Shown piece by piece: positions 5,249 through 60,915 of a DNA stretch of 60,915 nt. This DNA is from an uncultured Gammaproteobacteria bacterium (GTDB lineage: Bacteria; Patescibacteriota; Patescibacteriia; UBA9934). The notes below the pieces were generated by a model that worked only from the letters and a program-made list of their open reading frames with translations, was not told the origin of the DNA and searched no databases. A program made the translations under genes and the position numbers. How positions within the stretch are numbered: position 1 is the stretch's first letter; each line of letters begins with the position of its first letter. Location: assembly GCA_964401485.1 (NCBI GenBank), contig CAYNYL010000001.1, forward strand, positions 2,103-63,017, in the 5' to 3' direction.

Positions 5249-6046
5249 ATGGATTTGTTATTTGATATCGGCGGTACGTTCTCGAGATTCGCCATCGTGG
5301 AGAACGGGACGATCGGCCCCGTACAAAAAGTTCCCACTCCGAAAGATTTCGATACGGCAATGACCACTTTCTCTCAACTAATAAATAATTTACGCGGCAA
5401 TGGTCATTTTACTCAAGCTGCAGGTTGCTCCGTCGGTCCATTGAATTTCGAGAAATCAAGGATGATTCACCCACCGAATCTTCCAAGTTGGCATGATCAG
5501 CCCCTCCGGGACAGTCTTCAAAAGATCTGTGGTTGCCCTGTGAGCATTGAAAATGACGCGGATCTCGCAGGACTCGGAGAAGCAACTTATGGCGCCGGCA
5601 GGGGGAAGTCTATCGTCGTTTACTACACGATTAGCACGGGCGTCGGCGGAGCTCGAATTGTAGACGGTAAAATCGATAAAAGTCGTTTTGGAATGGAACC
5701 TGGGTATCAAATCATTGATCCAAATAATCCAAACGGTCACTTAGAAGGACTTGTTTCGGGCACAGCGCTACTTACTCGTTACAGGAAAGCCGGTGAGGAA
5801 ATACAGGATCCAGCGATTTGGAATAGCGTTGCGGAGTCTCTTGCGATTGGGCTCCATAATTCCATAGTTCATTGGTCGCCAGACATTATCATTCTCGGCG
5901 GATCGGTCATGAAAAGCCTACCACTCAATCTCGTTTCGGATCATCTTAAATCCCGCATGCATATTTTTACCGAGATTCCAGAACTCGTTCTTACGACGCT
6001 CGACGAACCGGGACTTTACGGCGCGCTTTCGCTTCTTAAAAACTAA
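5249..6046 (+). CDS. ROK family sugar kinase (glucokinase-like)
   Basis: FDIGGT, ENDADLAGLGE, ISTGVGG, GHLEGLVSG, ILGGSV; start placed at ATG 5249. Confidence 0.9.
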   Translation: MDLLFDIGGTFSRFAIVENGTIGPVQKVPTPKDFDTAMTTFSQLINNLRGNGHFTQAAGCSVGPLNFEKSRMIHPPNLPSWHDQPLRDSLQKICGCPVSIENDADLAGLGEATYGAGRGKSIVVYYTISTGVGGARIVDGKIDKSRFGMEPGYQIIDPNNPNGHLEGLVSGTALLTRYRKAGEEIQDPAIWNSVAESLAIGLHNSIVHWSPDIIILGGSVMKSLPLNLVSDHLKSRMHIFTEIPELVLTTLDEPGLYGALSLLKN

Positions 6047-6097
6047 ACGGCCGGCAACCCGTAGGATCGCCGACCGCACGCACACATCCTCCGAACT

Positions 6098-6943
6098 TTA
6101 CGCGAGCTCGGGGAACTCGCGACAAATGAGCGAAGCGACGTGGCCCGAGATGTCTCCGAACGCTCCTTGACTCGCGTAGTAACGGAGCCCTTCCGCGAAC
6201 CCCATCCCGTCGGGATGCGTCGCGACGAACCCACCGTTCAACTTGGTTGCCGACTTGATCTCGGGAACCGCGTTTGCGACCGCAATCACGCGCGCTTCGG
6301 GGATCACGAGCTCAAGGTCGTTCACCCCGTCAATCGCCGTGAGGACTTCCTCGGTCGTGATGCCGAAGGCCTTGCAAATCGCCTCGACGCCAAGCCCCTT
6401 GTGCAGGCTCCCGGGTAGCACGTCGACACAGCCGTCGCTGAATCGGTGCACCTTGAGCGGAAACTTTCGATCGTTGATCACGTCTAGAAAGTACTCCGCC
6501 CACGGAACAGTCGCCTCAAGATCCGTTCCCGAGGGAAAGAGCGAGATCACCGCCTCCTTGAGTTCGGGTCGACAGGACTGACGCTGTCCTCGACAGTAGA
6601 AGGTCCGTTCGATCGGGCTGAGTTCGATATGCCGTGCAAAGATCGCGAGGTCCCTCGCACCTCCCTTCACAGCCTCATGCACACGGTAGGCCGGCGGGTT
6701 GCGTTCGACCGTCTCGAGCACAACCGCACCCGTCTCTGCAATGACGAAGTCCCAAACCATCCCGATCCCGCAAGCGAGTCCGCGCGCATAATCGGCATTC
6801 TTCCCCGTAACGGGACCAACCTTGATTCCGAACGTCTGAAGCCCGCGAAGGACTCGACCAACGCGCGGATCAATCGGCCCACCCTGAGGCATCACCGTTC
6901 CATCAACGTCAAAGCCAACCAATCTAATCGTTTTTTTCGACAT
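6098..6943 (-). CDS. HAD-superfamily class IIB (Cof/SPP-like) phosphatase
   Basis: FDVDGT, VTGK, AETGA, DVLPGSLHKG, DGVNDLE, AVANA; SD AGGAGG. Confidence 0.85.
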   Translation of the reverse strand: MSKKTIRLVGFDVDGTVMPQGGPIDPRVGRVLRGLQTFGIKVGPVTGKNADYARGLACGIGMVWDFVIAETGAVVLETVERNPPAYRVHEAVKGGARDLAIFARHIELSPIERTFYCRGQRQSCRPELKEAVISLFPSGTDLEATVPWAEYFLDVINDRKFPLKVHRFSDGCVDVLPGSLHKGLGVEAICKAFGITTEEVLTAIDGVNDLELVIPEARVIAVANAVPEIKSATKLNGGFVATHPDGMGFAEGLRYYASQGAFGDISGHVASLICREFPELA

Positions 6944-58922: not shown

Positions 58923-59447
58923 CTACTCAACCTTGACGTAGCTTGCACGCAATTTGTTTACCAGCTCCAGCATAGCGGCAAATGACGATTCAGCCTTCGG
59001 CAAAAAAAGTTCACCTCGCGCCTTGGAAAGATGCAAAGTATTTCTAATCCCCTGTAATTCAGCTATTTCCTTAGTTAACTTACTACCTAAGAATTTCTCC
59101 TGTTTTTTAATCATATCCTGTAACCAAATACGCGACTCTTGTTTCTTTTTAGATGACCGATATGCAATTATTAAATCTTGTTTTTGTTTTTTAAACTCGC
59201 TCGGCAAAACTTGAAGGTGCCTATATTGCACATCTTCGTGCACGATGTTTTCTCGTCGTGTTCGGAACAAGAGGAGCGCTTCGATTACGGAGACATTGTA
59301 CAGGATGATCGTTCGAACGGTTTCATCTTTAAATTCATCATCGATGCTTTGTGCTAGCATCCAGAGAAAGCCCGCGAACTTAACCGACTCGATAATATTA
59401 TACCGAAGTGCCTTTGGGGTAATAAACGCAAAGGCGTCTCTTTCCAT
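58923..59447 (-). CDS. Hypothetical protein, possible HEPN-like RNase
   Basis: Helical; SVIEALL early and IRNTLH near the C-terminus; low GC. Confidence 0.55.
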   Translation of the reverse strand: MERDAFAFITPKALRYNIIESVKFAGFLWMLAQSIDDEFKDETVRTIILYNVSVIEALLLFRTRRENIVHEDVQYRHLQVLPSEFKKQKQDLIIAYRSSKKKQESRIWLQDMIKKQEKFLGSKLTKEIAELQGIRNTLHLSKARGELFLPKAESSFAAMLELVNKLRASYVKVE

Positions 59448-59450
59448 AAA

Positions 59451-59645
59451 TTATTTTGATCGACTTGTTTCGATCATCTGTATAAGCTTCGAGAGTGAGG
59501 GCGCACCTTCATTTCGTAACACGGTCGACAATTTAGCATCACCGCGGTAACCCAAATCAATCTTGTACTGTTTTTCAATAGTTTTAACCAACGTGTCACC
59601 ACGCTTCTTTTGAATTCGGCCGTTTTTTGCTCGTGATGCAGGCAT
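59451..59645 (-). CDS. Small basic protein, 64 aa
   Basis: MPASRAKNGRIQKKRGDTLVKTIEKQYKIDLGYRGDAKLSTVL; in operon with the RM genes. Confidence 0.75.
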   Translation of the reverse strand: MPASRAKNGRIQKKRGDTLVKTIEKQYKIDLGYRGDAKLSTVLRNEGAPSLSKLIQMIETSRSK

Positions 59646-59672
59646 ACTTAAAGTGTATATAACGAGAGCAGC

Positions 59673-60593
59673 TTAGTCCAATAATAAATCCACAAACTTC
59701 ACCGCTCGATTCTTTTCCCAATCCATTATCTTCACATAACGACCATTATGTTTGCGGGGGCGCCGACACTTACAACCCTCGCACTCATATTTTTCTATTC
59801 GATCCGGCAGTTCACCGAAAAGCGTTAGTGCACCAGGAATTATTTTACTTTCGTGATGACAGCTCATTGGAATCACGCACCGCACACCATCCATCTGAAA
59901 AATATTCCAACTAATAATCTCAGCGAACTCTTCTCGTACGCCCACTGTTGGCTTTTGATTAAATTTTGCTTCGTAGTAATCAATTAGCGTATAGAGCAAG
60001 TTTTCACGGGCGATGAGTACGTTATCGCCTTGCCATTCATATCCATAACTCGCTTTGTATGCTTCTTTTGCCCACGTCAGCCAGTCTTTTTTATTGTCGC
60101 AGTAACGAGAGACAACTTTGAGTTTACGATCTAAAAAACCAACCCTACTTGGAATACTAATCAGTACACCGTGAGCAGTAGGGTTATAGCGGGTGACTAT
60201 AAAAGGTGCTTCGCCACAGGTAATTTCAAGCTTAAGTTCACGTACGTAGTCCCGCCAGTTATTTTTGTTTGGCTGGTACGGCTCAAGGGCTTTGTTCATT
60301 TGTTCAACAGTCTTGAGTGGAGTGAACACTTCGGCTTTTTCTTTAGTGCGATGACGTTGCTCCTCTAGACTCTTTGCGGCACGGGGTTGAATCAGAAGAC
60401 GGTACTTCCCTGTTACAAGATCTGGCTTGATGTATTTGTCTGGAGCAAATGCTTTTCCGAATTTCTCATAGGAATCAGTTGCCCAGATGATGTTCTTTTT
60501 TGTGGTGCGGTCGACTAGTAAAGTATCAAGTAAGACACCCTGACGGCGGAGGGTGCTTTCTTTAATATCGATATCATACGGAGCCGCCACCAT
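59673..60593 (-). CDS. Restriction-modification accessory subunit (methylase-like, no NPPY motif)
   Basis: LLVDRTTKKNIIWAT, AEVFTP, LEITCGEAPF, YGYEWQGDNVLIAREN, IISWNIFQMDG. Confidence 0.8.
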   Translation of the reverse strand: MVAAPYDIDIKESTLRRQGVLLDTLLVDRTTKKNIIWATDSYEKFGKAFAPDKYIKPDLVTGKYRLLIQPRAAKSLEEQRHRTKEKAEVFTPLKTVEQMNKALEPYQPNKNNWRDYVRELKLEITCGEAPFIVTRYNPTAHGVLISIPSRVGFLDRKLKVVSRYCDNKKDWLTWAKEAYKASYGYEWQGDNVLIARENLLYTLIDYYEAKFNQKPTVGVREEFAEIISWNIFQMDGVRCVIPMSCHHESKIIPGALTLFGELPDRIEKYECEGCKCRRPRKHNGRYVKIMDWEKNRAVKFVDLLLD

Positions 60594-60596
60594 AGC

Positions 60597-60915
60597 TTAA
60601 GACATCGGCTTCACATTCTTTTCGATGAAGTCTATTTCGGCTTTATCGAGCCCGTACTTTTTGTATAGTTGCTTATCAATCTCAGCAACTGACTTGGACC
60701 AATCAATATCTGACTTCTTTGTGAAGTCCTGTAGGGGTACATTTTTCCATGTCCCCTTCGGGTTATCTTGTGTGACTTTTAATGTTCCTAACATAGCTCT
60801 ACAGAACTTCGTTTTGATATATTTGAGACAACTATGGGCTTCACCTTCTGTAGCAAAAGAACCAATCTGCAAAAATGAGTATGTACAACCCGTAAGGGGT
60901 TCTCCCGTAAGGGGT
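60597..60915 (-). CDS. C-terminus of an Eco57I-like (type IIG-related) RM methyltransferase, 5' end outside window
   Basis: LKYIKTKFCRAMLGTLKVTQDNP...VPLQDF...IDKQLYKKYGL..EIDFIE; frame open to the window edge. Confidence 0.85.
   Translation of the reverse strand, partial: PLTGEPLTGCTYSFLQIGSFATEGEAHSCLKYIKTKFCRAMLGTLKVTQDNPKGTWKNVPLQDFTKKSDIDWSKSVAEIDKQLYKKYGLDKAEIDFIEKNVKPMS

Follow-up and report, generated by a model that had tools for sequence, protein, structure and literature searches.

A mobile two-gene cassette encoding a small basic protein and a HEPN-like protein beside a restriction operon in a Patescibacteriota genome

The DNA considered here is a stretch of 60,915 nucleotides (hereafter the window) on contig CAYNYL010000001.1 of assembly GCA_964401485.1, from an uncultured bacterium that GTDB places in the Patescibacteriota. 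At its end, between positions 58923 and 60915, lie four open reading frames (ORFs), all on the minus strand and separated by 3, 27 and 3 nt. In order of transcription, these are the tail of a large restriction-modification gene, a gene for a 306-amino-acid (aa) partner of that enzyme, a gene for a 64-aa basic protein and a gene for a 174-aa HEPN-like protein (Table 1). The GC content of the four-gene block is 0.39-0.44, against 0.51-0.65 in the flanking DNA, and the low-GC island as a whole covers about 7.5 kb. A previous reading of the DNA letters alone (the sequence-only reading) described this packed, co-oriented, low-GC arrangement correctly, and proposed that the two small genes guard the adjacent restriction system. 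The analysis presented here supports the pair itself but points to another role: the 64-aa and 174-aa genes probably constitute an autonomous two-gene HEPN module, working by toxin-antitoxin or abortive-infection logic, that arrived with, or into, a defence island.

Table 1. Features of the four-gene block in window coordinates; L-numbers, here and in the text, denote fetched loci.
Feature	Position	Strand	Basis or remark
Tail of large restriction-modification gene	60597-60914, open at window end	-	Last 105 codons of a ~1,320-codon gene; runs on across the 100-N gap to L001:8807
306-aa partner of the large enzyme	59673-60593	-	PADLOC MTase_II match
64-aa basic protein, front gene of the cassette	59451-59645	-	Alignments A2 and A5
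174-aa HEPN-like protein, predicted metal-independent RNase effector	58923-59447	-	AlphaFold2 model and Foldseek
Codons of R135-N136-T137-L138-H139, putative catalytic RNxxH (Rx3H) motif, end of helix 3	59031-59045	-	Invariant R, N and H in alignment A4
Codon of E56, invariant acidic residue of helix 2	59280-59282	-	E in 115/115 aligned family members

The 174-aa protein has no significant match among the models of Pfam, NCBIfam, PADLOC or PHROG, and a sequence search of the PDB with its family profile (alignment A4) gave no match. Its predicted structure is more informative. The AlphaFold2 model, based on an alignment of 33 sequences, has a pLDDT of 91.5 and a pTM of 0.83, and consists of helices at residues 12-34 and 37-65, a beta-hairpin at 71-101, a kinked helical segment at 109-138 (helices 109-115 and 117-138), a loop and a last helix at 149-171. 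The protein is thus mostly helical, as the sequence-only reading had it, with the addition of the hairpin. In a Foldseek comparison with the PDB, the nine best matches to the model were all HEPN proteins, among them YutE (1ylm) and HepT/HEPN toxins (7bxo, 5yep, 6m6w, 7ae8 and 7ae6); later matches included AF0298 (2hsb), Csm6, the HEPN domain of sacsin, and AbiV. Foldseek probabilities reached 1.0, with target TM-scores of 0.5-0.72, while a comparison with the viral structures in BFVD returned nothing informative. The modelled protein therefore has a HEPN-like fold, as had been suspected from its letters.

HEPN domains have been defined by, among other features, a polar N, D or H following the arginine of the R..H motif, a conserved acidic residue in helix 2 that lies close to this motif, and frequent inserts between helices 2 and 3 (Anantharaman et al. 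2013, PMC3710099). The 174-aa protein fits this definition in the position of its motif (R135-N136-x-x-H139 ends helix 117-138), in the polar asparagine after the arginine, in the acidic residue of helix 2 (E56) and in the hairpin, which sits where helix 2-3 inserts are found. E56 is not in the typical Ex3[KR] arrangement, and its proximity to R135 and H139 is presumed by analogy with the published HEPN topology. A word-indexed search recovered 15 close homologues and a profile search 252 clusters at 50% identity, nearly all of them 170-200 aa long; one candidate member, L042, was dropped after alignment. Across the 114-115 full-length representatives, clustered at 50% identity, that were used for counting, RNxxH is present in 110/114 at a relative position of 0.78 +/- 0.02. 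The glutamate at position 56 is found in every one of the 115, K/R45 in 113, N136 in 114 and H139 in 113, and the R, N and H of the motif are invariant in alignment A4. A catalytic HEPN RNase is the likely identity of the 174-aa protein; this assignment rests on the modelled fold and on active-site geometry, because sequence profiles do not link the family to known HEPN families.

The 64-aa protein is, as the sequence-only reading had noted, basic (pI 10.4; 15 K+R against 6 D+E). Its AlphaFold2 model (pLDDT 79) has a disordered basic N-terminal tail followed by three short helices, and the core of the family carries the motif KRGDTLVKTIEKQY..DLGYR.DAKLSTVL...G.PSLSKL. Foldseek found no PDB fold match for the model, and no significant family match exists in Pfam, NCBIfam, PADLOC or PHROGs. 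Weak matches to the ribbon-helix-helix domain MatP_C occur in 18 of 67 members (best 0.001), and matches of profile A5 to xylanases in a PDB sequence search were disregarded, being confined to the low-complexity N-terminal tail. A literature search for KRGDTLV found nothing, and all members with public names that were examined are called 'hypothetical protein'. This is a large family of at least 1,977 clusters (90% identity), spread over candidate-phyla-radiation lineages, Gammaproteobacteria, Acidobacteriota, Verrucomicrobiota (including Akkermansia), Bradyrhizobium, Caballeronia and Solirubrobacterales. Searches with tblastn gave no match in phage records and only two distant rhizobial matches on plasmids. 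In an Acidobacteriaceae locus (L078, around 5700-6165), two small-protein domains stand in tandem in a single 154-aa ORF, followed by a 204-aa protein.

The distribution of the small gene and its HEPN neighbour shows that they are indeed a conserved pair, as had been supposed from the window alone. About 35 distinct cassette loci were examined, with genes in the fetched loci called by a simple longest-ORF heuristic, and the two genes occur together in all but one of them. In nearly every locus the homologue preceding the HEPN gene has a length of 54-66 aa, and in each of the metagenomic contexts recovered a 57-64-aa gene (84 aa in the most distant relative) lies directly upstream of the HEPN gene. 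The exceptions are the two most distant relatives, one with the 84-aa partner (L011) and one in which no partner was detected (L114). In genome G006 a distant HEPN-family gene stands without a detected small partner. Eighty loci were obtained when GTDB species genomes were scanned with the small-protein alignment. In 22 of these, which hold the closest small proteins, the next gene matches a hidden Markov model of the 174-aa family (2.6e-83 to 3.2e-16), and the two genes are separated by at most 12 nt or overlap slightly, compared with a 3-nt gap in the window; an apparent overlap of 32 nt in L017 probably reflects a mis-called TTG start. Compared pair by pair over 21 cassettes, the small proteins share 73.7% identity on average and their HEPN partners 39.0%, with a correlation between the two divergences (rho 0.82). 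These are two small, adjacent and co-oriented genes that are inherited together and travel as a unit, in the manner of a Type II-like toxin-antitoxin module.

The closest relatives of the cassette are of candidate-phyla-radiation origin. Of 61 related genomes, five carry the cassette (the pair is seen again in G057, G020 and G035) and two the 306-aa gene, and only the window genome has both. Five genomes of the same genus contain neither. One related genome, G035, carries a decayed cassette (contig C18; L115:7797-8300) in which the 56-aa small gene is intact but diverged, and the HEPN gene has suffered an internal deletion and a frameshift. A harmful HEPN protein would lead one to expect decay in this order.

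The genomic contexts of the cassette are varied. It stands next to restriction genes in 13 of the approximately 35 loci; apart from the window, these include loci with a PLD-SNF2 protein and an MmeI-type methylase (L002-4), a Type I system with Abi_alpha (L006), an EcoRI-type methylase with GmrSD (L013-16), an N6_N4 methylase with a helicase-nuclease (L019) and an EcoR124-type hsdR (L054). The other seven of the 13, all from the 22 genome loci (L024, L028, L031-L034 and L036), have the pair embedded in a Type I operon of EcoEI type, with hsdS or hsdM before it and hsdR after it. Altogether the cassette has been seen with at least six kinds of restriction system other than that of the window. 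Six further loci lie beside other defence or mobile genes (AbiEii, fusions of an SLFN helicase with S24, serine recombinases and a phage-like region), and at least nine are found among other, mostly housekeeping, genes, such as TIM/PGK/RecJ...L28 (rpmB), polA, an aminoacyl-tRNA synthetase gene, gyrA and hflX. About seven loci fell into no context class.

This distribution bears directly on the supposed link to restriction. Six or seven of the 22 genome loci directly follow hsdS, which is far above chance because hsdS occurs in only 17 of the 61 related genomes, each of about 1 Mb. In the seven Type I loci, however, hsdR and hsdS are themselves related, which suggests a small number of capture events and then the spread of whole operons. 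There is no constant linkage to a restriction locus, of Type I or otherwise, since 13 of about 35 loci are adjacent to restriction genes and at least nine lie elsewhere. The cassette thus prefers restriction and defence neighbourhoods but is independent of them, and it has no specific tie to the restriction type found in the window. The sequence-only reading had itself named occurrence of the two genes apart from restriction loci as evidence against its proposal, and this holds for part of the loci. The association with restriction that it proposed is real in general, but not for the particular system beside which the cassette was noticed.

Two side observations concern these neighbourhoods. 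In two candidate-phyla-radiation genomes, a Schlafen-group-3 helicase with a C-terminal S24 (LexA-like) peptidase is encoded directly upstream of the cassette (L022:4140-5867 and L027:3873-5894); such fusions may themselves be defence genes. The Type I operons around the cassette contain a second embedded passenger, a gene for 190-400 aa between hsdM and hsdS (L032:4289-4870, with equivalents in L033, L034 and L036). In L032 it encodes 194 aa and has no Pfam match.

The first of the restriction genes of the window had been taken for an Eco57I-like methyltransferase. An Eco57I domain is indeed present in the gene, but the ORF in the window is only its C-terminal end. At the window end there is a scaffold gap of 100 N, and the same 27 nt, ACCCCTTACGGGAGAACCCCTTACGGG on the coding strand, flank it on both sides (window 60889-60915; L001:4992-5145), reading PLTGEPLTG in frame on each side. 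The contig ends thus overlap at the gap, and the large gene is probably continuous; a frameshifted restriction-modification gene was rejected as an idea, the break being a scaffold gap with overlapping flanks. Because the flanks are identical and in frame, the supposed methyltransferase is the tail of a single T5orf172-helicase-Eco57I gene. This gene has T5orf172 (4.9e-6), ResIII (5e-16; ResIII/SNF2 helicase) and Eco57I (2.5e-24) domains and a VVGNPPYQ motif, and it matches the PADLOC model REase_MTase_IIG at 1.6e-36. Its tail by itself matches the same class (PDLC03626, profile positions 1264-1359) and also MTase_II. A nuclease-family domain, a helicase and an NPPY N6A-methylase domain are therefore combined in one polypeptide, as in Type IIG and Type ISP enzymes, the helicase being of SF2 type and the methylase of Eco57I type. 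The window enzyme differs from these in having T5orf172, rather than Mrr or PD-(D/E)xK, as its N-terminal domain, and in the separate and conserved 306-aa methylase-like partner without NPPY that is encoded beside it.

This partner is harder to classify. The sequence-only reading called it a methylase-like subunit lacking NPPY, and there is no (N/D)PPY motif in it, while the PADLOC model MTase_II (PDLC03390) matches it at 3e-94. Its N-terminus looks methylase-like by eye (AEVFTP...EITCGEAPF), and the chain closes with a cysteine-rich stretch (CHH...CEGCKC). No match was found in Pfam, NCBIfam or a PDB sequence search. However, homologues with 44% identity on plasmids of Enterococcus, Pediococcus and Lactiplantibacillus are labelled 'restriction endonuclease' in RefSeq, in conflict with the PADLOC label; the protein is a candidate recognition or nuclease subunit. 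On the two plasmids that were inspected, the homologue lies 2 nt from a gene for an Eco57I-domain protein of about 1,410 aa (L097:6941-12030 and L098:5938-11012), with the order of the two genes in the Firmicutes plasmids reversed relative to the window. The large enzyme and its 306-aa partner therefore make up a restriction system of two genes that has been conserved. Neither of these plasmids has anything like the two small genes after the restriction pair.

Upstream of the large enzyme the co-oriented block continues on the minus strand with a gene for a 325-aa PD-(D/E)xK/NucS_C-like nuclease and then a MazG-like gene (L001:8810-10116). The nuclease gene ends 2 nt before the large enzyme gene and its product matches the PADLOC candidate PDC-S02 at 2.6e-149; the MazG-like gene overlaps it, and genes of this kind also occur close to a further two cassette loci. 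Neither direct nor inverted repeats bracket the cassette or the island, and promoter and terminator predictions at the locus did not rise above the shuffled background. The assembly as a whole comprises 38 contigs and 1.09 Mb, with a GC content of about 0.50 in the main contigs. Contigs C4 and C21 have values of about 0.30-0.34, and C14, C16, C20 and C23 exceed 0.6; these deviant contigs may be foreign DNA in the bin or large islands.

The small protein is not restricted to HEPN partners. Among the 80 genome loci, the gene that follows it encodes a HEPN protein in 22, DUF3892 in nine, a TIR protein in four, a multi-ubiquitin protein in three, and a patatin, a PycTM protein and an adenylate/guanylate cyclase in one each. 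Small proteins preceding non-HEPN genes are more distant, with approximately 40-55% identity (L060-L095), and these other effectors occur in Proteobacteria, Acidobacteriota and Verrucomicrobiota. In 13 of the 80 loci a gene similar to ImmA/IrrE lies upstream on the opposite strand, within about 1 kb in 11 of them and accompanied by a helix-turn-helix (HTH) gene in four. A further example is plasmid pBBta01 of Bradyrhizobium sp. BTAi1 (L127:4965-5905), where the small gene and a TIR gene stand opposite a divergent HTH and ImmA/IrrE pair. Given the presence of these regulator genes, the small protein in such operons is a component rather than the sole transcription regulator.

The layout of these operons recalls that of CapH/CapP, which is described for CBASS, DUF3892, ubiquitin-like and other defence operons in the available passages of Lau et al. 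(2022, bioRxiv 10.1101/2022.04.27.489752). The distant relatives of the 64-aa protein are likewise encoded by the first gene, with a divergent ImmA/IrrE gene upstream and in some cases an HTH gene, and their partner types (DUF3892, TIR, ubiquitin-like and cyclase) overlap those listed in these passages. In contrast, there is no regulator pair near the window cassette or its candidate-phyla-radiation relatives, and the same passages do not describe the small protein.

Among known systems, the structural counterparts of the 174-aa protein are the toxins of HepT-MntA (HEPN-MNT) modules, such as Shewanella SO_3166/SO_3165 and the HEPN/MNT pair of Aphanizomenon, which supplied the best matches to the model (7bxo, 5yep, 6m6w and 7ae8). 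In both cases a small HEPN protein is encoded directly after its partner in a two-gene module, with the R..H motif near three-quarters of the chain. The partner, however, is a basic protein of about 60 aa here and an MNT nucleotidyltransferase there; the motif is Rx3H rather than Rx4H, a beta-hairpin is inserted between helices 2 and 3, and the two families show no similarity at the profile level (hhalign probability 0.4%). The anticodon nucleases PrrC (with EcoprrI) and RloC, which are linked to Type I systems, are also HEPN RNases within restriction loci. They differ in possessing a large N-terminal ABC-type NTPase and in lacking a small partner, whereas the 174-aa protein has no P-loop (no NTPase match in Pfam, NCBIfam or PADLOC) and its cassette is also found away from restriction genes. 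Other HEPN families known to be embedded in restriction-modification operons, besides PrrC and RloC, are Abi2/AbiD/AbiF, ApeA and EC042_2821, the last of which overlaps Pfam DUF3644 (Anantharaman et al. 2013, PMC3710099). These three resemble the present family as standalone or fused HEPN domains inserted in restriction operons or defence islands, and DUF3644 is the best of the sub-threshold Pfam matches of the 174-aa protein. There is nevertheless no significant match to any of them, and neither an obligatory tiny partner nor an x3 spacing has been described for them (PMC3710099).

Taken together, the presence of the cassette in five of 61 related genomes and in none of five from the same genus, its low GC content, its varied contexts and the occurrence of the restriction pair without it on plasmids argue that the cassette is autonomous and mobile. 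In the account that we consider probable, a mobile two-gene module would have come to lie behind a Type IIG/ISP-like restriction operon, at its 3' end, in a low-GC defence island. The 174-aa protein would be a divergent, metal-independent RNase of HEPN fold, with an active site formed by E56 (helix 2) and R135-N-x-x-H139 (end of helix 3). Its tiny basic partner, translated just upstream, would bind the RNase and silence or gate it. The analysis itself shows the fold, the conservation of the motif, the strict pairing, the mobility and the context statistics; RNase activity, toxicity, neutralisation by the small protein and a trigger are what we infer from there: phage infection, loss of the module or some other stress would disturb the partner, the RNase would then cut cellular RNA, and growth would stop. 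The proximity to restriction genes would reflect the known habit of such modules of settling in restriction operons and defence islands, and not a dedicated guard circuit.

A number of observations weigh against this account. The Foldseek E-values behind the HEPN assignment are weak (0.04-0.4). The canonical Rx4-6H spacing is absent, Rx3H being found throughout the family and x4-6 alone never. The best Pfam scores are sub-threshold (0.068 for DUF3644 and 0.078 for HEPN_AbiU2), and hhalign gives a probability of only 0.4% against an alignment of seven HepT-like sequences from related genomes. With regard to the small protein, it is more conserved than its HEPN partner in 210 of 210 pairs, which is unusual for an antitoxin; structurally unrelated effectors stand behind its relatives, which is unexpected for a lock-and-key antitoxin; and both cassette proteins are basic. 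For the small protein, the way the G035 cassette has decayed and the order of the genes speak for an antitoxin role, while its high conservation, basic charge and unrelated effector partners agree better with a sensor or switch, or with a promiscuous antitoxin.

Another explanation would see in the cassette a guard in the style of PrrC and RloC, in which the HEPN RNase is held latent on the adjacent restriction enzyme until a phage anti-restriction factor puts that enzyme out of action and the RNase fires, with the small protein as the coupling adaptor. Cassette and restriction genes share one orientation and are closely packed, without a predicted terminator between them on the coding strand; its site in the Type I operons, upstream of hsdR in seven of the 22 genome loci, is the position of PrrC, and this frequency is reached although hsdS is present in only 17 of the 61 related genomes; still further loci abut other restriction systems. 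Yet the 174-aa protein has no NTPase domain, unlike PrrC and RloC, and the same cassette accompanies restriction systems of unrelated architecture or none at all. It does not co-occur with the window restriction type in the 60 relatives, the restriction pair stands alone on plasmids, and the seven Type I loci, with their related hsdR and hsdS, may trace to few capture events. With cassette and restriction pair each found without the other, a dedicated guard of the window system, as the sequence-only reading envisaged, is quite unlikely. An even less probable explanation, which we regard as remote, is that the pair is not a toxin system at all, but a DNA-binding regulator of ribbon-helix-helix or HeH-like type together with a non-catalytic or RNA-processing HEPN-like accessory that tunes the expression of neighbouring genes. 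The recurrent, if weak, MatP_C matches in 18 of 67 small proteins, the basic character of both proteins and the departure of Rx3H from catalytic HEPN domains would agree with this. However, the near-invariance of E56, R135, N136 and H139 at a mean pairwise identity of 39% over 21 cassettes argues for catalysis, the patchy and mobile distribution in defence islands is unlike that of a housekeeping regulator, and relatives of the small protein occur in operons that already have HTH regulators.

A rather more serious competitor, albeit one that we think unlikely, retains the RNase and alters the role of its partner. The small protein would then be a sensor or switch instead of an antitoxin, a constant subunit that monitors some conserved cue, either cellular or in nucleic acid, and switches on whatever effector is encoded after it. 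It is strongly conserved between phyla, while across the 80 loci the effectors diverge or are exchanged, and the divergent ImmA/IrrE gene in at least 13 loci and on the BTAi1 plasmid, in the CapH/CapP layout, means that a separate transcription regulator is already present in those operons. On the other hand, a sensor of about 50 residues for such varied effectors is without precedent, and the G035 locus, where the small gene was kept and the HEPN gene lost, fits an antitoxin better. A hyperpromiscuous antitoxin domain (PanA) has reportedly been found, in which case swapped partners would not exclude an antitoxin. A wider form of the sensor idea may be put forward tentatively: the 64-aa protein could be the constant sensing or switching subunit of a large and undescribed class of two-gene immune modules with interchangeable effectors. 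The effector might, if so, be an Rx3H HEPN RNase in candidate-phyla-radiation bacteria and a TIR, patatin, PycTM, DUF3892, multi-ubiquitin or cyclase protein elsewhere. It is conceivable, at a similarly speculative level, that the small protein is so strongly conserved because it recognises an invariant cue, cellular or nucleic-acid, and not the effector. The autonomous HEPN module remains our preferred reading of the window cassette itself.

That HEPN RNases are lodged in restriction operons is a known theme, and the general picture is not new. Neither of the two cassette proteins has a defence-system model in PADLOC-DB v2.0.0 (none at E <= 1). The literature searched on HEPN proteins embedded in restriction operons yielded no paper on a cassette of this type, and a search pairing 'HEPN' with 'Rx3H' found none either. 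The libraries and literature searched likewise did not contain this HEPN family with Rx3H, its obligatory tiny partner or the many effector types of that partner. What is added here is, first of all, a HEPN-fold family of at least 250 sequence clusters with an invariant E...RNxxH outside the Rx4-6H rule, which has gone undetected by Pfam, NCBIfam, PADLOC and PHROGs. To this can be added its obligatory partner of about 60 aa, roughly twice as conserved as the nuclease, and the observation that genes of the partner family, which is spread over many phyla, stand ahead of TIR, patatin, PycTM, DUF3892 and multi-ubiquitin genes as well. Should the small protein turn out to be a general switch or a promiscuous antitoxin, numerous two-gene defence candidates that are now orphans would be connected through it. 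In that case it would also offer a simple handle for the discovery of effectors in candidate-phyla-radiation genomes, where few defence systems have been characterised.

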